Virus record (IMG/VR): IMGVR_UViG_2619619134_000015
Location: 1-16,655 of that record
Source of the DNA: a virus
Lineage: Duplodnaviria; Heunggongvirae; Uroviricota; Caudoviricetes
DNA length: 16,655 nt
Strand: one strand, 5' to 3'
Below, piece by piece: positions 3,388 through 12,187 of this stretch. Each line of letters starts with the position of its first letter. The first letter of the stretch is position 1. The position numbers were made by a program, and so were the translations under genes. The notes under the pieces are model-generated. The model worked only from the letters and a program-made list of their open reading frames with translations. It was not told where the DNA came from and did no database searches.

Positions 3388-3899
3388 GCCGCGTTTCCTT
3401 CTTTCTTATTAACAATCACACCGTCATATATTTCATTAAGGTGCCCTCTCAACTCCATGCGCCTTAATGCAGATAACATGTAATCGCATTCAACCTGCTT
3501 ATTCCCGGTAAATGGCTTATCGTCAGGATTACCCCAACAGCAATTACCCCTGGGCCATCCATGTACTTTCCGTACTCTTCCGTTAACAACGTGAAGTAAT
3601 CCCCAGCCGGGAGGTAAATCCTCAACTGAAATAATTTCCGGCTCACTAATAAAGAATCGCCAGTCGCCCATGCCAAGTGAGGGATTTTTACGGAAACGCT
3701 TTTTTCTATCTGCCAACAAGTCAGCACGAGAACACTTCGCCTCTATCAGGCATGATGCTGAATTTCTGAATCCCATAGCATCTGGCTGTTCTCCGGTACT
3801 GGTTACAGCAACAAAGCGGTCATGAAAGCAAACCTTGAACCCGTTGCGCTTAAGGAACTTGTACGCAATCTGACAGAGTTCGTGGTGTGTTAACGCCAT
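3384..3899 (-). CDS. Hypothetical protein (171 aa), possible PD-(D/E)XK nuclease-like fold
   Basis: Start chosen at the ATG at 3897-3899, preceded by AAGGAGAG; the ORF-track start at 3941 would overlap the upstream gene. The motif D..(n)..CLIEAKCSRADLL is reminiscent of a PD-(D/E)XK core. This is inference only. Confidence 0.55.
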   Translation of the reverse strand: MALTHHELCQIAYKFLKRNGFKVCFHDRFVAVTSTGEQPDAMGFRNSASCLIEAKCSRADLLADRKKRFRKNPSLGMGDWRFFISEPEIISVEDLPPGWGLLHVVNGRVRKVHGWPRGNCCWGNPDDKPFTGNKQVECDYMLSALRRMELRGHLNEIYDGVIVNKKEGNAA

Positions 3900-4699: not shown

Positions 4700-4915
4700 T
4701 CATCGCTCCTTAAAGACGCCGTTTAACATGCCGATCGCCAGGCTTAAATGAGTCGGTGTGAATCCCATCAGCGTTACCGTTTCGCGGTGCTTCTTCAGTA
4801 CGCTACGGCAAATGTCATCGACGTTTTTATCCGGAAACTGCTGTCTGGCTTTTTTGATTTCAGAATTAGCCTGACGGGCAATGCTGCGAAGGGCGTTTTC
4901 CTGCTGAGGTGTCAT
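4700..4915 (-). CDS. Hypothetical protein (71 aa from the ATG at 4915; the ORF also has an upstream ATG at 4981)
   Basis: ORF in the lambda orf61 position downstream of orf63. Start is uncertain because neither ATG has a strong RBS. Identity to lambda orf61 is not established. Confidence 0.45.
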   Translation of the reverse strand: MTPQQENALRSIARQANSEIKKARQQFPDKNVDDICRSVLKKHRETVTLMGFTPTHLSLAIGMLNGVFKER

Positions 4916-4991
4916 TGAACAAGTCCCATGTCGGCAAGCATAAGCACACAGAATATGAAGCCCGCTGCCAGAAAAATGCATTCAGTGGTTG

Positions 4992-5183
4992 TCATACCTG
5001 GTCTCTCTCATCTGCTTCTGCTTTCGCCACCATCATTTCCAGCTTTTGTGAAAGGGATGCGGCTAACGTATGAAATACTTCGTCTGTTTCTACTGGTATT
5101 GGCACAAACCTGACTCCAATTTGAGCGAGGCTATGTGCCATCTCGATACTCGTTCTTAACTCAACGGGAGATGCTTTGTGCAT
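4992..5183 (-). CDS. Lambda orf63-like protein (63 aa)
   Basis: Exactly 63 aa, with an ATG at 5183 preceded by GGGGAG. Position relative to exo matches the lambda order exo-orf60a-orf63. Identification is from gene order and size plus partial memory of the sequence. Confidence 0.55.
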   Translation of the reverse strand: MHKASPVELRTSIEMAHSLAQIGVRFVPIPVETDEVFHTLAASLSQKLEMMVAKAEADERDQV

Positions 5184-5338
5184 ACAGCTCCCCGTTTATT
5201 ATTTATCTCCTCAGCCAGCCGCTGTGCTTTCAGGGGATTTCGGATAACAGAAAGGCCGGGAAATACCCAGCCTCGCTTTGTAACGGAGTAGACGAAAGTG
5301 ATCGCGCCTACCCGGATATTATCGTGAGGATGCTTCAT
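5156..5338 (-). CDS. Lambda orf60a-like protein (60 aa)
   Basis: The ATG at 5336-5338 overlaps the exo stop (ATGA), giving a 60-aa product ([16 protein letters not shown]...). It is immediately downstream of exo, as in lambda. Confidence 0.55.
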
Positions 5339-6015
5339 CGCCATTGCTCCCCAAATACAAAACCAATTTCAGCCAGTGCCTCGTCCATTTTTTCGATGAA
5401 CTCCGGCACCATCTCGTCAAAACTCGCCATGTAATTTTCATCCCGCTCAACCACGACATAATGCAGGCCTTCACGCTTCATTCGTGGGTCATAGTTGGCA
5501 AAGTACCAGGCATCTTTTCGCGTCACCCACATGCTGTACTGCACCTGGGCCATGTAAGCTGACTTTATGGCCTCGAAACCACCGAGCCGGAATTTCATGA
5601 AATCCCGGGAGGTAAACGGGCATTTCAGTTCAAGGCCGTTGCCGTCACTGCATAAACCATCGGGAGAGCAGGCGGTGCGCATACTTTCGTCGCGATAGAT
5701 GATCGGGGATTCAGTAACATTCACGCCGGAAGTAAACTCAAACAGGGCTCTGGCGTCGTTCTCGTACTGTTTTCCCCAGGCCAGCGCCTTAGCATTAACT
5801 TCCGGAGCCACACCGGTGCAAACCTCAGCCAGCAGGGTGTGGAAGTAGGACATTTTCATGTCAGGCCACTTCTTTCCTGAGCGGGGCTTTGCTATCACGT
5901 TGTGAACTTCTGAAGCGGTGATGACGCCGAGCAGTAATTTGTGCCATGCATCATCCCCCTGTTCGACAGCTCTCACGTCGATCCCGGTACGCTGCAGGAT
6001 AATGTCCGGTGTCAT
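5335..6015 (-). CDS. exo: Lambda exonuclease (Red-alpha), 226 aa
   Basis: The protein ([43 protein letters not shown] ... FVFGEQWR) matches lambda Exo as remembered. Its start overlaps the bet stop. Confidence 0.95.
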
Positions 6016-6802: not shown

Positions 6803-7219
6803 TTATACCTCTGAATCAATATCAACCTGGTGGTGAGCAATGGTTTCAACCATGTACCGGATGTGTTCTGCCATGCGCTCCTGAAACTCAACATCGTCAT
6901 CAAACGCACGGGTAATGGCTTTTTTGCTGGCCCCGTGGCGTTGCAAATGATCGATGCATAGCGATTCAAACAGGTGCTAGGGCAGGCTTTTTTCCATGTC
7001 GTCTGCCAGTTCTGCCTCTTTCTCTTCACGGGCGAGCTGCTGGTAGTGACGCGTCCAGCTCTGAGCCTCAAGACGATCCTGAATGTAATAAGCGTTCATG
7101 GCTGAACTCCTGAAATAGCTGTGAAAATATCGCCCGCGAAATGCCGGGCTGATTAGGAAAACAGGAAAGGGGGTTAGTGAATGCTTTTGCTTGATCTCAG
7201 TTTCAGTATTAATATCCAT
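6803..7219 (-). pseudogene. gam: gam (RecBCD inhibitor) interrupted by an in-frame amber codon
   Basis: The locus is 417 nt, equal to the 138-codon lambda gam. The N-terminal 80 codons ([50 protein letters not shown]...DDMEKSLP) end at a TAG at 6977-6979. Downstream, the same frame encodes [57 protein letters not shown], matching the lambda Gam C-terminus, then a TAA at 6803-6805. Confidence 0.85.
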
Positions 7220-7317
7220 TTTTTATAAGCGTCGACGGCCTCACGAAACATCTTTTCATCGCCAATAAAAGTGGCGATAGTGAATTTAGTCTGGATAGCC
7301 ATAAGTGTTTGATCCAT
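7174..7317 (-). CDS. kil: Kil, host cell-division inhibitor (47 aa)
   Basis: [47 protein letters not shown] matches lambda Kil as remembered. It overlaps the gam start and the cIII 3' end, as in lambda. The ORF-track N-terminal extension to 7443 is an artefact. Confidence 0.8.
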
Positions 7318-7450
7318 TTTTTGGGACTCCTGGCTGATTAAGTATGTCGATAAGGCGTTTCCATCCGTCACGTAATTTACGGGTGATTCGTTCAAGTAAA
7401 GATTCGGAAGGGCAGCCAGCAACAGGCCACCCTGCAATGGCATATTGCAT
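7286..7450 (-). CDS. cIII: CIII, FtsH/HflB inhibitor that stabilises CII (54 aa)
   Basis: The ATG at 7448-7450 begins MQYAIAGWPVAGCP..., the lambda CIII N-terminus. The ORF is 165 nt and is absent from the ORF track because it is under 60 aa. Confidence 0.8.
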   Translation of the reverse strand: MQYAIAGWPVAGCPSESLLERITRKLRDGWKRLIDILNQPGVPKNGSNTYGYPD

Positions 7451-7522
7451 GGTGTGCTCCTTATTTATACATAACGAAAAACGCCTCGAGTGAAGCGTTA
7501 TTGGTATGCGGTAACGCCGCGC

Positions 7523-7891
7523 TCAGGCGGCTTTGATAGTCATATCATCTGAATCAAATATTCCTGATGTATCGATATCGGTAATTCTTATTCCTTCGCT
7601 ACCATCCATTGGAGGCCATCCTTCCTGACCGTTTCCATCATTCCAGTCGAACTCACACACAACACCATATGCATTTAAGTCGCTTGAAATTGCTATAAGC
7701 AGAGCATGTTGCGCCAGCATGATTAATACAGCATTTAATACAGAGCCGTGTTTATTGAGTCGGTATTCAGAGTCTGACCAGAAATTATTAATCTGGTAAA
7801 GTTTTTCCTCTGTCATTACGTCATGGTCGATTTCAATTTCTATTGATGCTTTCCAGTCGTAATCAATGATGTATTTTTTGATGTTTGACAT
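7523..7891 (-). CDS. ea10: Ea10-like protein (122 aa)
   Basis: Its size and its position immediately upstream of cIII match lambda ea10. ATG at 7891. Confidence 0.7.
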   Translation of the reverse strand: MSNIKKYIIDYDWKASIEIEIDHDVMTEEKLYQINNFWSDSEYRLNKHGSVLNAVLIMLAQHALLIAISSDLNAYGVVCEFDWNDGNGQEGWPPMDGSEGIRITDIDTSGIFDSDDMTIKAA

Positions 7892-7910
7892 CTATTCATA
7901 TCCTCACAGA

Positions 7911-7937
7911 TAAAAAATCGCCCTCATACTGGAGGGC
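7911..7937 (-). terminator. Rho-independent terminator (leftward) between the accessory cassette and ea10
   Basis: On the minus strand, a GCCCTC-(6 nt)-GAGGGC hairpin (7920-7937) is followed by GATTTTTTAT. Confidence 0.5.
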
Positions 7938-8041
7938 AAAGAAGATTTCCAATAATCAGAACAAGTCGACTCCTGTTTAGTTACGAGCGACATTGCTCCG
8001 TGTATTCACTCGTTGGAATGAATACACAGTGCTTATTCGTA

Positions 8042-8512
8042 CTAATAAAACACCCAGTTTTCTGTTTCTTGGTTGTGTCCAAAGTTATATTCAATATCTG
8101 GTGTTGATGTATCAATATTCTTCATCCCATCAACAAGAGTTGATGCAACAGCCAAATCTTGTTTGATTCTCATTAAATGGTATTTCTTCCGGCGCAATAA
8201 ACTTTCAATGGCAAGTTTCTTCGTTGGGAATGCAAAAGATCTTTCTGCATTTTTTGCTACTTTCTTAATTGCATATCTATTTCTCTTTTGTTTCCATTCC
8301 TGTAACCACTGATTTGGTGCTGGTTTAAAATTAACAATCCAATGCGCAGGAACCAACCATGCATAATGCTCTGTCTGATGAAAAGCTATATATTGAAGTG
8401 CGAATATTTTGATTCCATCTTCTTCAACTGTCGCCTGGAATCTCCAGAAAACAGGCATTCCATCATGTTCAGTTTCTGATTCAGGAAAAGGTACGCTCCA
8501 TGATTTTGTCAT
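8042..8512 (-). CDS. Hypothetical protein (156 aa), accessory cassette gene A
   Basis: ATG at 8512 preceded by GAGGTGA. It lies in an AT-rich segment (judged by eye) in the position of lambda ral/sieB. No recognisable motifs. Confidence 0.6.
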   Translation of the reverse strand: MTKSWSVPFPESETEHDGMPVFWRFQATVEEDGIKIFALQYIAFHQTEHYAWLVPAHWIVNFKPAPNQWLQEWKQKRNRYAIKKVAKNAERSFAFPTKKLAIESLLRRKKYHLMRIKQDLAVASTLVDGMKNIDTSTPDIEYNFGHNQETENWVFY

Positions 8513-8569
8513 ATCTCACCTCAAATAATTCAGTGCAGTGTTTATTCTGTTGCTTATTCCAAAGCAAAT

Positions 8570-8812
8570 TTAACCAGCAACAAACTCTTCTGGTAATTTA
8601 TCAACCACTTGATGGCTTATTATCAGCCATTTGCCATCCTTCGTTCCGTATGCATATTTCTGGTCTTTTATCATCATGTGTTCAGCTACTGCCTTAACTG
8701 CCTGTTCGGTTACATCTTCTTTCTTTCCCACCCACATTCCTTTTTCAGTGTTTAATGTTCCTTGAAAAATACGACCACTTAATGGGCTTGCGCCCATAGT
8801 TTTGATTTTCAT
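8570..8812 (-). CDS. Hypothetical protein (80 aa; MKIKTMGASPLSGRIFQGT...), accessory cassette gene B
   Basis: Start chosen at the ATG at 8810-8812, preceded by GGAGA. The longer ORF-track start at 8875 has no RBS and would overlap gene C. Confidence 0.5.
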   Translation of the reverse strand: MKIKTMGASPLSGRIFQGTLNTEKGMWVGKKEDVTEQAVKAVAEHMMIKDQKYAYGTKDGKWLIISHQVVDKLPEEFVAG

Positions 8813-8820
8813 ATGTCTCC

Positions 8821-8848
8821 TTAAAAATAAAGGCCGATTATGCGGCCT
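8821..8848 (-). terminator. Hairpin plus T-run (leftward) between cassette genes C and B
   Basis: On the minus strand, an AGGCCG-cataat-CGGCCT hairpin (8831-8848) is followed by TTATTTTTAA, immediately before the gene B RBS. Confidence 0.45.
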
Positions 8849-8852
8849 GAAA

Positions 8853-9176
8853 TTAATTAACCAATGATGCTGCATATTCGATAAGGTAAAGCTTTGGGGC
8901 CAGCCAAATTTTTAACCAAGTCATATTGGTTACTGCACCAATAATAAAATCCCCCCACAGAGTCAAAACTCCAACCAATGGCACGATAAGAAGATTAATA
9001 TCACCTTTGCTATCCCAAACCATTGTCGGCCTGTATTTGGGATTTCCTTTCTCCCATGAATATCCTTCATCACCGATTTCACCTGTCTCAACTCTTTGGC
9101 ACTGCTTCTTCATAAACCAGAAAACCAGTGGGATTGTTAGAATGGCTATTAATGTTTTAATCAGACTGTCAACCAT
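8853..9176 (-). CDS. Small membrane protein (107 aa, two predicted TM helices), accessory cassette gene C
   Basis: Start at the ATG at 9174-9176 (the ORF-track start at 9191 is a TTG). Hydrophobic stretches LIKTLIAILTIPLVFWF and INLLIVPLVGVLTLWGDFIIGAV. RBS is weak. Confidence 0.5.
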   Translation of the reverse strand: MVDSLIKTLIAILTIPLVFWFMKKQCQRVETGEIGDEGYSWEKGNPKYRPTMVWDSKGDINLLIVPLVGVLTLWGDFIIGAVTNMTWLKIWLAPKLYLIEYAASLVN

Positions 9177-9442
9177 ATTCCATAGCAGCAACTGATGAAC
9201 AACATCAGGAATCTGTGCCTGGCTAAATGAAACAGCCGCGTCTATTCCATTGCTGGCTTTTTGCAGTAGTTCTACGAGAATCTTGTTTGCTTGTTCTTCC
9301 GTATATCACCTTAAATAGTGGATTGCGGTAGTAAAGATTGTGCCTGTCTTTTAACCACATCGGGCTCGGTGGTTCCTCCACTTTCCACAGTCAAAGGAAA
9401 TGGGTAGACTGTTGTTTCCACAGTCAAAAGAAGGGCTTTGTT

Positions 9443-9607
9443 ATGACAGATATTGTTAATCCCAAAACCAACCCACACGAAGCCGCTCAACAGATTATTG
9501 TTGAGCTTATCAGAGCCGGTAATCTTGCCCCTGGCATTGACGGAAAGCCAAGCACAGTTGTTTATGAAAAAATTCTTGATGAGATTATCAGAATAAACAG
9601 TAAGTAA
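9443..9607 (+). CDS. Hypothetical small protein (54 aa; MTDIVNPKTNPHEAAQQIIVELIRAGNLAPGIDGKPSTVVYEKILDEIIRINSK)
   Basis: First ATG of the 9338..9607 ORF, preceded by AAGAAGGG. It is the only rightward ORF in the left arm and is preceded by two 18-bp direct repeats. Confidence 0.35.
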   Translation: MTDIVNPKTNPHEAAQQIIVELIRAGNLAPGIDGKPSTVVYEKILDEIIRINSK

Positions 9608-9847
9608 TTAAGAGAACAAAATTTCGAATGCCTGGCGGATGGTTGCAACATCTTCGTTCGTCAGTTTTTTTCGTTCATCTGATGACATCGATAACAATGC
9701 ATTCCTCTCAATCAACGTAGCCAGCAGTTTAGATGCTATATTTTGAACGTCAGGGCTTAACTCTAAGAATTTATTTCGACTACGTTCGAGAATAAGTTGT
9801 GTCGCGGGTGTATCTTTTAACTCAGATATTTTTTTTGTCCAATACAT
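9608..9847 (-). CDS. Hypothetical protein (79 aa from the ATG at 9847) immediately downstream of N
   Basis: The ORF-track start at 9871 is a TTG; the first ATG is at 9845-9847 with a weak RBS. It is convergent with the 54-aa plus-strand ORF. Confidence 0.35.
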   Translation of the reverse strand: MYWTKKISELKDTPATQLILERSRNKFLELSPDVQNIASKLLATLIERNALLSMSSDERKKLTNEDVATIRQAFEILFS

Positions 9848-9904
9848 CAAGCATTTCTTTCGTTTTCTCAATTAGTAATTGTTCAATACATGAAATATCC
9901 ATAA

Positions 9905-10213
9905 TTACCTCGCCGTCAGTTGTTTTGATTTCCGATAGCCTGCCACGTAGATGGCTACGTTTGGCAGGCAAATGCTTCCATTGCATTCGTCGGTATTTTG
10001 GTTACGAATGTTGCCGAGTGATATTGCTTTTTCAGAAAGGCTTAAACGCTTTCTCGGTTCTTTCTGAACAGGTTCATCACTGTCTGTACCGAAGATCGAA
10101 TCGATGATGTTGCATATAGCATCACGCTCGATAGCCAGCTTTCTGCGCCGCTCATGACGGCGAGTTTTGGCATTTCCTGTAAATGTTGATTTCCCGTACA
10201 CGATTACCGTCAT
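9905..10213 (-). CDS. N: N-type transcription antiterminator (102 aa), P22 gp24-like
   Basis: Arginine-rich motif GNAKTRRHERRRKLAIERD near the N-terminus, matching my recollection of P22 gp24. It sits between the immunity region and the recombination genes. The nut sites have P22-type GACAA boxB loops. Confidence 0.8.
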   Translation of the reverse strand: MTVIVYGKSTFTGNAKTRRHERRRKLAIERDAICNIIDSIFGTDSDEPVQKEPRKRLSLSEKAISLGNIRNQNTDECNGSICLPNVAIYVAGYRKSKQLTAR

Positions 10214-10392
10214 GATGTTTTCCTCATGTAAAATGGCTTTGGTGGTGAGGTAGGTGGGAGACCCATTTCGACCTGTTTCGGCCTACTTCAATTCGGCAAT
10301 AGTCCCGCAGGCCTCGCCGCTTTACGTGCGACATATTCCCGTCCATGAACCCTTCACCACACCGCCAAACCCATCTCGTTTGGTATCTGTTT

Positions 10393-10426
10393 GCGCTTTG
10401 TCAGCGCCCCATCGAAGTTAAAGAGC
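10393..10426 (-). promoter_or_regulatory. nutL (boxA-like GCTCTTTAA plus boxB hairpin GCGCU-GACAA-AGCGC)
   Basis: Read on the minus strand: boxA-like GCTCTTTAA, a roughly 10-nt spacer, then a perfect 5-bp stem with a GACAA pentaloop. Confidence 0.55.
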
Positions 10427-10776
10427 CCGCCAATCTGTTCCGTTTGGCTTCCAACGTCCTGCTGATGGCGATAATAATGAACCAGTAGTTCGATATTATC
10501 AAGAACTATTGGTACGAATCGTTTATGATTTATTAACTCTACGAAATATGATTTTGATATATAAGGAAATTTATTTTTGTAAATGTTGCGGATGAAGGTT
10601 ATGCGGCAGGGATCAGAATTGCGTGGTTTAGCAAGTTGTATCTATTTATTTTTCAATAAATACAATTGGTTATGTGTTTTTAGATGGTGGATCGGGAGGC
10701 AAAGAAAACTGCTAGGTAGAAAACTGTGGGCACAAAAAAGCTAATGTGGAGTTGTTTGATCTTTTTAGGGGAATAA
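10427..10776 (-). promoter_or_regulatory. Presumed pL/OL region (promoter and operators not resolved)
   Basis: AT-rich non-coding segment between the terminator of the cI-linked module and nutL. Position only; no confident -35/-10 or operator assignment. Confidence 0.3.
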
Positions 10777-10803
10777 GAAAACCCGCCGAAGCGGGTGTTT
10801 TTG
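10777..10803. terminator. Bidirectional rho-independent terminator (AAAACCCGC-CGAA-GCGGGTGTTTTT)
   Basis: GC-rich 6-bp stem with a 4-nt loop flanked by an A-run on one side and a T-run on the other. It lies immediately after the stop of the 40-aa ORF, in the position of the lambda immunity-operon terminator. Confidence 0.7.
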
Positions 10804-10804
10804 G

Positions 10805-10927
10805 TTATGCTGCCATTGGAAGCTTTGATGCTAGCATTTCTGCTTTTCTCTGCTTCATTTCAGCAATAATCTGATTGATTCGATCCGCACTTTTAAGCAT
10901 ATCTTTGATATGTTCAGTTCTAGACAT
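10805..10927 (-). CDS. Hypothetical small protein (40 aa; MSRTEHIKDMLKSADRINQIIAEMKQRKAEMLASKLPMAA)
   Basis: Not in the ORF track because it is under 60 aa. ATG at 10925-10927 preceded by GGAGG at 6-nt spacing, 23 nt after the stop of the 120-aa gene. A TAA stop is followed directly by the terminator. Confidence 0.5.
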   Translation of the reverse strand: MSRTEHIKDMLKSADRINQIIAEMKQRKAEMLASKLPMAA

Positions 10928-10950
10928 GTTTATCCTCCGCTCTGTAAGTG

Positions 10951-11313
10951 TCAAAGACCCGATTTAGCACTCTTGAGTAGTTTTGATCCCTCAGAGCACA
11001 AATCAGGATTCTTTTCTCTTATGTTTTTGATTAAAATCTGTGCAAATATGATGATTTGCTTTAAGTTTAGTTCATTGATTGCATCAGCTTTTTGGTCAAG
11101 TTTCTCTAGCTCTGCATCTAATTCGTCAAGAGATGGGTTTGTTAACTCATGCAACCCTTCAATTCCAAGCTCTTCAAGACTGGTTGTAACAAATTCAATC
11201 AGACCGATTACAGCCTTTTTGACGCTATATATCTGCTTCTCCTCTGCGGAGGCCTCTGCACTTGGAACCAATGCTAAGGTTTTCAGATATTCATTCGTTT
11301 CATCTTGGGTCAC
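10951..11313 (-). CDS. Hypothetical acidic protein (120 aa) in the rexA/rexB position downstream of cI
   Basis: GTG start at 11311-11313 preceded by AAGGAG at 8-nt spacing. Same strand as cI and AT-rich. The overlapping plus-strand ORF 10910..11434 has antisense-like S/F-rich composition. Confidence 0.55.
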   Translation of the reverse strand: MTQDETNEYLKTLALVPSAEASAEEKQIYSVKKAVIGLIEFVTTSLEELGIEGLHELTNPSLDELDAELEKLDQKADAINELNLKQIIIFAQILIKNIREKNPDLCSEGSKLLKSAKSGL

Positions 11314-11479
11314 TAACTATACTCCTTATATATGCTCGATCAACCCATTTTGCAACCGCATTTACTGGGATAGAGCTTTTTTTACAATAGTCTTATGTGT
11401 ATATTTACAACGTTGTTTGTGGATAGGGTTATGATTTGTACCTAAAACCTGTCGCATTTTCGTCTCTATGCTATTGGTA

Positions 11480-12187
11480 TTAATAATTTCTCAGCCACTC
11501 CCTTGCCTCGATGTCATCCAGATGGCGAGATTGCTTCAGAATACCAGCCACATACTCCACCTTTGCTACTTGATGATAAGGCAACGTTATTGGTCTGTGG
11601 TCCTGGTTGATGCTTGTAAATTGGTATTCTCCATCTCTGTCATAGCCAAGAATCTTGATCATGTTGTGTCCTTCGATGGTTCTGACAAACACCTCATCAC
11701 CCGGGAATACTTTGGTGTTAGGCTCAATGAGTACATATTCTCCTGATTTTATTCTGGGCCACATGCTGTCTCCTTTCACACGAAGACCAAAGGCATCTGG
11801 ATCATCGCTATAAATCTTGAGCCACCCATCGCGTTCTTCGGTCATCTCGATGGCACCATCAACACCAAGAATTGCCTCACCAACCACGCGCACTAACCCT
11901 TTTTTTAATTTGCCAACAAATGAAAGAGTATCTTCATCATTCGCTCCATTTAACGAAGTGCCGTGCTGAAGCCAAACAACATCAACGTTTAGAAATTTCG
12001 CAAGCGCATTCATTTTTTCCTGACGCGGTAAAGACTCAGCATTAAACCATTTGCTAACGCCTTTGGACGAAAGAGAAAGGGCACGGGCTATAGCCATTCC
12101 CCTACCATGTTCATCAAGACCAGCTTCTTTACAGGCTTGCGCTAGCCGCTGGGCGAATTCTTTGCGCACTTTTTCATTCTGAACCAT
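11480..12187 (-). CDS. cI: CI-type prophage repressor (235 aa), HTH N-terminal domain plus LexA/S24-like self-cleaving C-terminal domain
   Basis: N-terminal HTH region (GMAIARALSLSSKGVSKWFNAE) and a C-terminal domain with the Ser (GDSMWP) and downstream Lys typical of the S24 peptidase fold. It is divergent from cro. It is not the lambda cI sequence. Confidence 0.85.
   Translation of the reverse strand: MVQNEKVRKEFAQRLAQACKEAGLDEHGRGMAIARALSLSSKGVSKWFNAESLPRQEKMNALAKFLNVDVVWLQHGTSLNGANDEDTLSFVGKLKKGLVRVVGEAILGVDGAIEMTEERDGWLKIYSDDPDAFGLRVKGDSMWPRIKSGEYVLIEPNTKVFPGDEVFVRTIEGHNMIKILGYDRDGEYQFTSINQDHRPITLPYHQVAKVEYVAGILKQSRHLDDIEAREWLRNY

Follow-up and report, generated by a model that had tools for sequence, protein, structure and literature searches.

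Three accessory genes between ea10 and N of a lambdoid prophage are probably unrelated mosaic modules, one of them an allele without its start codon

Results

The window, i.e., the whole stretch of 16,655 nucleotides analyzed in this study, contains a group of leftward genes between an ea10-like gene and the gene encoding the antiterminator N. The list of open reading frames (ORFs) of the window confirmed the three minus-strand ORFs that had been reported in a preliminary description of this DNA, at 8042-8512, 8570-8812, and 8853-9191 (herein genes A, B, and C, respectively). They are not the only ORFs between ea10 and N; two further ORFs were found between gene C and N, both of which have gene annotations in two public contigs that are nearly identical to the window. 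The first (9608-9871, minus strand; 79 or 87 aa) lies directly downstream of N and gave only a weak helix-turn-helix-like PHROG match. The second (9443-9607, plus strand; 54 aa) matches phrog_27767, is convergent with leftward transcription, and falls inside the ea10-N interval, beyond the three genes previously described.

The three genes had also been said to replace ral and sieB. No homologue of ral or sieB was found in the scanned ORFs of the ea10-N interval, and neither genes A, B, and C nor the two extra ORFs gave a Ral match in Pfam, PHROGs, or NCBIfam; the ral probe was validated by its performance in tblastn, where it picked up ral beside gene C homologues in other loci. The placement of A, B, and C as accessory genes at the ral/sieB position of the lambdoid early-left operon holds up. 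Gene C homologues, however, often accompany ral or sieB (24 of 80 loci) and do not replace them. Scans of genes A, B, and C and of the extra ORFs against Pfam, PHROGs, and NCBIfam returned only DUF7446 and PHROGs to which no function is assigned. Moreover, PDB sequence searches gave no match below E 0.4, and the matches of A, B, and C in PADLOC-DB were at chance level only (E about 0.01, 13-15 bits). An Rfam scan of the window yielded the cIII thermoregulator as its sole match.

The base composition of the region was then compared with that of exo/bet (GC 0.52), relative to which the three genes had appeared AT-rich by eye. GC content was 0.363, 0.391, and 0.404 for genes A, B, and C, respectively, and 0.46 for the whole window. 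The difference from exo/bet is thus real, but it is not specific to these genes; low GC (about 0.35-0.46) spans the entire segment from ~7050 to 10050, in which both the ea10-like gene (0.385) and the ORF beside N (0.371) lie. Two hairpin/T-run terminators noted earlier were also verified, both on the minus strand. The one downstream of gene A (7908-7939; stem 7939-7918) has an 8-bp stem with 5 GC pairs and a TTTTTTAT tail (-12.9 kcal/mol, z -3.4). The other (8821-8848; stem 8848-8831; -9.7 kcal/mol, z -2.4) follows directly after the gene C stop codon. No downstream terminator of its own was seen for gene B. Across the region, 5 terminator-like sites were observed, compared with 2.8 +/- 1.5 in shuffled sequences. 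The terminator downstream of gene A is part of a mosaic module common to phage 933W, whose match starts at position 7900 of the window, and the terminator downstream of gene C moves together with the module of that gene; the T-run of this terminator contains the mosaic junction between B and C (8823-8835).

Upstream of these genes, the minus strand carries a pL-like promoter (10474-10502; TTGATA, a 17-nt spacer, and CATTAT), followed by nutL (10393-10427, with approximate coordinates at the boxA end) and the gene for the 102-aa antiterminator N (9905-10213; Pfam N_peptide, 130.9 bits). In nutL, a boxA-like GCTCTTTAA precedes the boxB hairpin. The latter, GGCGCTGACAAAGCGC, has the same sequence as the nutL boxB annotated in 933W. 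In a simple consensus scan, which can miss weak or non-canonical promoters, the pL-like site was the only minus-strand sigma-70-like match in 7400-10700, and none was found in 7400-10470. When the three spacers upstream of A, B, and C were inspected by eye, the best promoter likeness had 7 of 12 matches. Given that pL, nutL, and N are intact upstream and that no internal promoter was predicted, N-dependent lytic expression is implied. Transcription would start at pL (10502-10474), would be modified by N at nutL, and would then pass both intrinsic terminators (8848-8831, then 7939-7918). From this arrangement of sites we infer that A, B, and C would be delayed-early lytic genes, silent in the lysogen.

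Gene A (8042-8512, minus strand), which is preceded by the Shine-Dalgarno sequence GAGGTG, encodes a 156-aa soluble protein that matches phrog_1636 over its full length (E 3e-111, positions 1-156 of 156). It corresponds to HK97 gp45, 933W L0079, phi24B vb_24B_11c, and an ORF of H-19B (98-99% identical), the protein identity being 98.1% to HK97 gp45 and 98.7% to the 933W protein. As in these phages, gene A is leftward and downstream of N; moreover, its downstream terminator and ea10-like neighbour are both the same in 933W, and no difference of substance separates it from the HK97 gp45/933W L0079 family. Gene A stands alone after N in 933W and phi24B, and adjoins xis/int in Pectobacterium. The protein has no hydrophobic segment and a K/R-rich central region. 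The AF2 models were of moderate confidence (pLDDT 67 and 71); the model of gene A (pLDDT 67) consists of an N-terminal beta-sheet and a long helix at 98-131, and gave no fold match in structure comparison. Pfam scans of each member of the gene A alignment at E<=1 likewise gave no consistent weak match. Literature searches found no paper for L0079 or vb_24B_11c, and the term "HK97 gp45" yielded unrelated papers only. A 158-aa gene beside a DUF7446 paralogue in a Yersinia prophage was also tested as a homologue of gene A, and proved not to be homologous.

Gene B (8570-8812, minus strand; strong Shine-Dalgarno AAGGAG) encodes a soluble protein of 80 aa counted from its ATG; the open frame reaches 8875, and homologues begin MKIKTMGASPL. 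The protein belongs to phrog_1578 and to the Pfam family DUF7446 (PF24233), which it matched with 97.2 bits (cutoff 24.1) over profile positions 2-70 of 70. It has every invariant residue of the family alignment and no hydrophobic segment, and PF24233 is carried by all 57 of 57 gene B homologues. The family occurs in ~260 records of virulent Ackermannviridae, whose homologues are 50-61% identical. In P22-like phages the gene lies beside ral and sieB, which it adjoins and does not replace; in Yersinia prophages it has other neighbours. In both of the public contigs mentioned above (99.5% identical), gene B carries a W62-stop. No papers were found for DUF7446, PF24233, or the PHROG identifiers.

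Gene C had been described as encoding a 107-aa protein with two transmembrane (TM) segments. The ORF at 8853-9191 encodes 112 aa when read from a TTG (9191), or 107 aa when read from the ATG at 9176. However, the frame is open up to 9305, and the homologues examined all start 42 codons upstream of the 107-aa ATG. Judged from these alignments, the 107/112-aa ORF is the C-terminal three-quarters of a start-less, 149-codon gene C allele (8853-9302, minus strand; phrog_3054), in which ACG (9300-9302) replaces the ATG start of the family through one T>C substitution (position 9301, coding strand). The two hydrophobic segments of the earlier account were retained (centred near residues 52-56 and 111-116 of the 149-aa protein), and topology analysis also predicted two TM segments; the length was not. 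The Shine-Dalgarno GGTG is kept 5 nt upstream of the ACG, and the frame is closed by a TGA two codons upstream. In an IMG/VR scan that covered only close relatives of gene C (73-97% identity) and that was used for both start-codon and neighbour counts, the start was ATG in 78 of 80 homologue loci and ACG in none. The ACG is also present in the two public contigs mentioned above, L006 and L007 of E. coli. Because its start codon has been lost, gene C probably yields no more than trace amounts of protein. ACG can start translation in E. coli at a very low level, and gene C may here not be completely null. The shared ACG, together with the W62-stop of gene B in the sister contigs, points to relaxed selection in this lineage.

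Over its full length, the 149-codon frame can be aligned with intact family members (95-96% identity); about 1 residue separates it from the nearest ATG allele. Homologues numbered 515, and nearly all of the 120 listed were exactly 149 aa long. Residues 1-41 are the best conserved part of the family, which comprises >2400 clusters at 50% identity. Met43, at which the 107-aa reading starts, is not conserved (F or L in many homologues), and no Shine-Dalgarno sequence was seen before it. The family layout starts with an acidic, conserved helix at the N terminus, which is followed by TM1, a K/R-rich loop of variable sequence, TM2, and the conserved C-terminal motif WLKIWLAPKLYLIEYAASL; gene C matches phrog_3054 in full, including the N-terminal helix, both TM segments, and the C-terminal APKLYLIEYAASL motif. 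By the positive-inside rule, the conserved termini are predicted to be periplasmic and the hypervariable loop cytoplasmic. Among temperate phages, members occur in lambdoid and P22-like types, and among virulent ones in phi92-like and N4-like phages and in Vibrio and Ralstonia jumbo phages. Homologues are also located at late-operon positions, after lysis cassettes and in a P22-like structural gene cluster. Gene C and its homologues gave no Pfam match, scans of individual members (E<=1) and of ten distant relatives were likewise without a consistent match, and the searchable literature contained no mention of the family.

The distribution of the three genes was examined in 5426 complete E. coli genomes. 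Gene A was present in 2259 of these (42%), gene B in 45, and the gene C family in 778, and A, B, and C together were absent both from these genomes and from GenBank phage records. In the 80 IMG/VR viral contigs with close gene C homologues, gene A followed gene C in 5 and gene B in 0; in the same loci, ral or sieB was adjacent in 24 (ral in 16, sieB in 8), and lysozyme-Rz...Nu1 in 6. The A-B-C order recurs in L006 and L007. Because these contigs are near-identical to the window, the shared order reflects common descent, not independent association. Mosaic junctions were mapped to the intergenic spacers at 8529-8563 and 8823-8835; at the latter, the match to Gally/HF4s begins at 8823, and the match to SE16 (gene B) stops at 8835. 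Taken together, the differing frequencies, rare adjacency, separate contexts, and spacer junctions suggest that the modules are independent.

Discussion

The combined data make it likely that the interval between ea10 and N consists of three mosaic modules in a row, each a single gene unrelated to the others, and is not one functional system. With comparable assurance, the host element can be taken as a Stx-phage/HK97-like lambdoid prophage, in which the modules lie inside the N-antiterminated pL (early-left) operon. Homology searches placed all three proteins, none of which had been recognized before, in phrog_1636 (A), DUF7446 (B), and phrog_3054 (C), while structure comparison gave no fold match; all three are already catalogued as hypothetical proteins (A as HK97 gp45/933W L0079). 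The region is ordinary lambdoid mosaic DNA and carries little significance for this window, and the gene that had made it attractive, gene C, is a start-codon mutant. The C and DUF7446 families are nevertheless common to temperate and virulent enterobacterial phages, and gene A is present in 42% of the complete E. coli genomes; because A, B, and C are uncharacterized, they are reasonable targets for systematic screens of phage gene function.

The arrangement resembles the ral-sieB segment of lambda and P22 in its position between N and ea10/cIII, its small, dispensable-looking genes, its AT-rich sequence, the terminators between genes, and the logic of N-dependent expression. In contrast, A, B, and C are unrelated in sequence to Ral and SieB, and all three run in the direction of pL, while sieB lies on the opposite strand in the records examined; moreover, gene C often coexists with ral or sieB. 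Gene C was also considered as a SieB candidate, and was rejected when hhalign of the C-family profile with SieB of ETEC H10407 returned a probability of 0.7% and no Pfam match was found. The region had further been likened to a moron, which in the HK97 genome paper is reportedly an autonomous promoter-gene-terminator unit of deviant composition. Genes A and C each have their own terminator travelling with the module, as a moron would. However, no promoter of its own was found upstream of A, B, or C at the threshold of the consensus scan. The GC content of 0.36-0.40 is lower than that of exo/bet and the same as that of the ea10-like gene and the N-adjacent ORF.

The roles proposed here were derived from the genomic position of the three genes, from phage host range, and from predicted topology. 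Papers on the early-left operon leave most of its genes without a known function. By analogy with the characterized neighbours Ral, Gam, Kil, and CIII, which act on the host, A and B probably do so while the phage grows lytically, serving host take-over or counter-defence, although our confidence in this assignment is low. A more specific version, in which A and/or B are early counter-defence proteins analogous to Ral, Gam, or Abc and directed against host restriction or abortive infection, is a tentative possibility. It would fit the location of both genes among early-left genes of that type, the position of A immediately after N in HK97 and the Stx phages, and the retention of B in virulent Ackermannviridae, and the K/R-rich centre and long helix of A suggest nucleic-acid or protein binding. 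Against it, neither protein has homology to a known anti-defence protein or a structural match, and the searchable literature holds no experimental data on them. This proposal refines our best explanation and is not a replacement for it.

For intact members of the C family, predicted topology and phage distribution are consistent with a probable function at the cell envelope in the lytic cycle, e.g., in superinfection exclusion or lysis timing; this too is put forward with low confidence. T4 Imm, Sp, and RI and HK97 gp15 are small inner-membrane proteins of superinfection exclusion or lysis control. By analogy only, the C family is comparable in being small, having two TM segments, and occurring in temperate and virulent phages, and some of its members are at the ends of lysis cassettes or at moron hot spots. 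However, the family showed no sequence or fold similarity to the Pfam holin, Imm, or SieB families or to BFVD models, and, unlike those proteins, the copy in the window has no start codon. Some C homologues also occupy the post-lysis, pre-terminase hot spot in which tai genes lie, Tai/Ati being the tail-assembly-interference system of phi80 (PMC11364771). TaiEcA (about 200 aa) is encoded on the opposite strand (PMC11364771), and a tblastn comparison of A, B, and C with the phi80 tai/ati region gave no match, which led us to reject them as Tai/Ati relatives. That the C family as a whole represents a widespread, undescribed envelope-acting phage factor of the exclusion or lysis-timing kind seems rather improbable but conceivable, and, if it does, the window itself holds only a start-less copy.

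Whether gene C is still functional in this genome is a separate matter. A functional product might be the 107/112-aa protein, or might arise by low-level initiation at the ACG or at the ATT chosen by the NCBI annotation pipeline PGAP; we consider this doubtful, and equally so that such a product would act on its own at the envelope, in exclusion or in the control of lysis. All 149 codons are open and encode a protein that departs from its nearest ATG counterpart at about one residue, and the ACG allele keeps its Shine-Dalgarno sequence and persists in at least 2 independent genomes. There is also a precedent at the same locus, P22 sieB/esc, where an internal in-frame start yields a functional shorter product. 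However, the short product of gene C would have lost the N-terminal 41 residues, the best-conserved part of the family, and would start at a Met43 that is neither conserved nor preceded by a Shine-Dalgarno sequence. Moreover, the full-length frame would depend on a start codon found in none of the 80 related loci, 78 of which use ATG, and in the sister contigs decay extends to the adjacent gene B.

Much less probable is the reading suggested in the preliminary description, that A, B, and C form one prophage system for exclusion or abortive infection. The membrane protein would then be the effector or sensor, and the two soluble proteins would be its cytoplasmic partners. Lambda and P22 do keep sieB and ral at this locus, and the three genes are contiguous, co-stranded, and AT-rich, in an order that is found in two public contigs. 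In the E. coli genomes, however, their frequencies (2259, 45, and 778 of 5426) are far from equal and adjacency is near zero, and each gene is found singly in other contexts. Homologues of B and C are present in virulent phages, and those of C in late operons as well; the consensus scan predicted no promoter for lysogenic expression, and PADLOC gave nothing above chance level. Finally, gene C has lost its start codon here, and gene B has acquired a nonsense codon in the sister contigs. We therefore favour independent modules over a cassette.

A sequencing or assembly error that would leave gene C a normal 149-aa gene is highly improbable, since, although the allele is one base away from its closest relative, the same base is found in an NCBI assembly and a Logan assembly whose flanks differ (14 mismatches over 2.8 kb, and another gene left of A). 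A single T>C change thus made a 149-aa gene look like a gene of 107 aa, and small-ORF calls need to be checked against the length of the family.

Organization of the early-left region

Judged from its sequence, the window is a portion of a lambdoid phage or prophage, and it is closest to the Stx-converting phages AU5Stx1 and 933W (best matches of 96-97% identity across 56-60% of the window). On the minus strand, a promoter scan predicted a pL-like promoter (10502-10474), followed by nutL (~10427-10393), with a boxA-like GCTCTTTAA and a boxB hairpin the same as the annotated 933W nutL boxB, and by N (10213-9905; Pfam N_peptide). ORF analysis found the three leftward genes reported previously, namely gene A (8042-8512, 156 aa), gene B (8570-8812, 80 aa) and the frame of gene C (8853-9302). 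Leftward of gene A lie an ea10-like DUF2528 gene (7891-7523, minus strand) and cIII, followed by kil, gam, bet and exo; the Rfam Lambda_thermo element (cIII thermoregulator; 7463-7405, minus strand; 88.5 bits vs a gathering score of 50) is located at the 5' end of cIII, matching the lambda arrangement. Two ORFs between gene C and N were missing from the preliminary description: a 79/87-aa ORF directly after N (9871-9608, minus strand; weak helix-turn-helix-like match to phrog_517, E 0.005) and a 54-aa ORF convergent with pL transcription (9443-9607, plus strand; phrog_27767, E 1e-9). Both are annotated as genes in L006 and L007, two public E. coli contigs.

The two hairpin/T-run terminators were recovered by a terminator scan, after gene A (7939-7918) and after gene C (8848-8831), with folding energies of -12.9 and -9.7 kcal/mol and z-scores vs shuffles of -3.4 and -2.4, respectively. 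A plus-strand terminator-like hairpin (8782-8797; ATGGGCTTGCGCCCAT, then a T-rich tail) inside the 5' end of gene B may be a simple by-product of its coding sequence. The AT-richness ascribed to the cassette was borne out insofar as genes A, B and C have lower GC contents (0.363, 0.391 and 0.404) than exo/bet (0.52); however, GC is low across the whole of ~7050-10050, including the ea10-like gene and the ORF adjoining N, and AT-richness is thus a trait of this operon section rather than of the cassette.

Genes A, B and C are independently mobile

The preliminary description regarded the three genes as one cassette, in which a small membrane protein with partner proteins stands in place of ral/sieB. 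When 5426 complete E. coli genomes were searched by megablast, DNA of gene A was found in 2259, of gene C in 778, and of gene B in 45. Coverage of all three genes was found in none of these genomes and in no GenBank phage record; the best partial combinations were A and C without B (three genomes), or A and B without C. Moreover, the module boundaries fall in intergenic spacers. The A module, common to 933W, HK97 and H-19B, extends to 8529-8563; the B module (common to P22-like Salmonella phages) spans 8546-8835, and the C module (common to Gally, HF4s and ETEC H10407) starts at 8823, within the T-run of the post-C terminator.

Gene neighborhoods also differed between genomes. Gene A directly follows N in 933W and phi24B and adjoins xis/int in a Pectobacterium prophage; gene B adjoins ral and sieB in phage SE16, and in Yersinia prophages lies downstream of N among quite different neighbors. 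One Yersinia prophage contig carries, in a single early-left operon, two divergent DUF7446 (gene B family) paralogues (1814-2083 and 3501-3758) separated by two unrelated genes and ~32% identical to each other's closest window match. In ETEC H10407, gene C lies between ral and an ea10-like gene, and sieB is also there. Among 80 IMG/VR loci with close gene C homologues, the neighbors of gene C included ral in 16, sieB in 8, gene A in 5 and gene B in none. Given these co-occurrence and neighbor data, gene C neither replaces ral or sieB nor has A and B as partners; the three-gene block is a chance juxtaposition of independently mobile phage genes, one of them defective here.

Gene C has lost its start codon

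The length of 107 aa first assigned to gene C proved to be a mis-measurement. The annotated homologue in Gally is 149 aa, and translation of the window from 9302 gave an identical length of 149 codons with zero stops, codon 1 being ACG in place of a start. DNA alignment with the closest relatives attributed this to one T>C change in ...GGTGATATATGGAA... A database search returned 515 homologues, and among the 120 listed nearly all were exactly 149 aa. Residues 1-41 are the best-conserved part of the family alignments, in which every other full-length sequence has Met at column 1. At residue 43, the Met from which the 107-aa version began, many homologues have Phe or Leu; it is therefore no conserved internal start. 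In the 80 IMG/VR loci the start codon was ATG in 78, GTG in 1 and ACG in none.

A private sequencing error was ruled out, as the ACG is shared by L006 and L007 (one an NCBI assembly of E. coli, the other a Logan assembly; 99.5% identity to window 7898-10700), where gene callers reported proteins of 142 aa (ATT start) and 107 aa. Gene B, intact in the window, carries a premature stop (W62*) in both contigs (6001-6243 in L006; 1467-1706 in L007) and is annotated there as 61 aa. Together, the start-codon evidence, the shared ACG and W62* suggest that, in this prophage lineage, selection on these accessory genes has been relaxed. The window copy of gene C is a start-codon-null allele, one that probably makes no contribution.

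Distribution, topology and possible roles

Hydrophobicity analysis revealed two strong hydrophobic segments in gene C and none in genes A and B. The gene C family has a constant layout: a conserved, acidic helix at the N terminus leads into TM1, and then come a sequence-variable loop (0-76 residues), TM2 and a near-invariant C-terminal W[LI]KIW[IL]APKLYLIEYAASL. The 15 residues that follow TM1 had a mean K+R of 3.0, vs 0.6 before it, from which the positive-inside rule predicts a cytoplasmic loop and periplasmic conserved termini. An AF2 model (pLDDT 71) gave the expected helix-TM-loop-TM-helix, for which structure comparison against BFVD returned no match.

Searches of Pfam, NCBIfam, PADLOC and PDB sequences linked neither gene A nor gene C to a characterized family. 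Relationships to SieB (hhalign) and to the phi80 tai/ati region (tblastn) were likewise rejected. Within the searchable literature no paper naming these families was found, and reviews of early-left operons describe the majority of their genes as lacking a known function.

Searching 1.84 billion cluster representatives with a gene C family profile retrieved 2472 clusters at E<=1e-3. Members were located within a P22-like structural gene cluster and in the Ralstonia jumbo phage RsoM2USA, phi92-like myoviruses, the N4-like Ithacavirus and many Vibrio phages. Homologues of 60-68% identity also end prophage lysis cassettes: in E. coli (L013-L016, 4001-4450) gene C is flanked by Rz and the terminase gene Nu1, and the Pantoea stewartii cassettes run holin, lysozyme, Rz/Rz1, C, with the start of C overlapping the Rz1 stop, an overlap that suggests translational coupling with the spanin genes. 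The Pantoea loci (L009-L012) span ~4768-5453, and the overlapped stop is that of an Rz1-like LysC gene. Gene B homologues (50-61% identity) were found in ~260 records of virulent Ackermannviridae; gene A is mostly restricted to lambdoid phages. Families that obligately lytic phages share are unlikely candidates for defense genes expressed in the lysogen.

Genes A, B and C lie downstream of intact pL, nutL and N, are co-oriented with pL and have good Shine-Dalgarno sequences; no promoter of their own was predicted, and two of the three (A and C) have an intrinsic terminator downstream. They would be transcribed only when N-modified RNA polymerase passes these terminators, which would make them delayed-early lytic genes like their characterized neighbors Ral, CIII, Kil and Gam. 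Most plausibly, although with low confidence, A and B are host-directed early proteins for take-over or counter-defense, and intact gene C members are envelope-acting lytic-cycle proteins for superinfecting-phage exclusion or lysis timing. All three are already catalogued, uncharacterized phage genes, and the interest of this region in the window is low. The large gene C family is the sole part possibly worth pursuit, for which intact copies from other phages are better starting material than the window allele.

More promising than genes A, B and C as a moron expressed in the lysogen is a 111-aa ORF (10951-11286, minus strand). It is located between pL/N and cI (11480-12187, minus strand), the slot that rexAB takes in lambda and stk in 933W. 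It had no Pfam match and a sole PHROG match (phrog_16322, E 1e-6). The ORF shares the strand of cI and is overlapped by a plus-strand ORF (10910-11434); this stretch is AT-rich (GC 0.35-0.39), and a sharp positive GC-skew peak was observed at 10501-10800.
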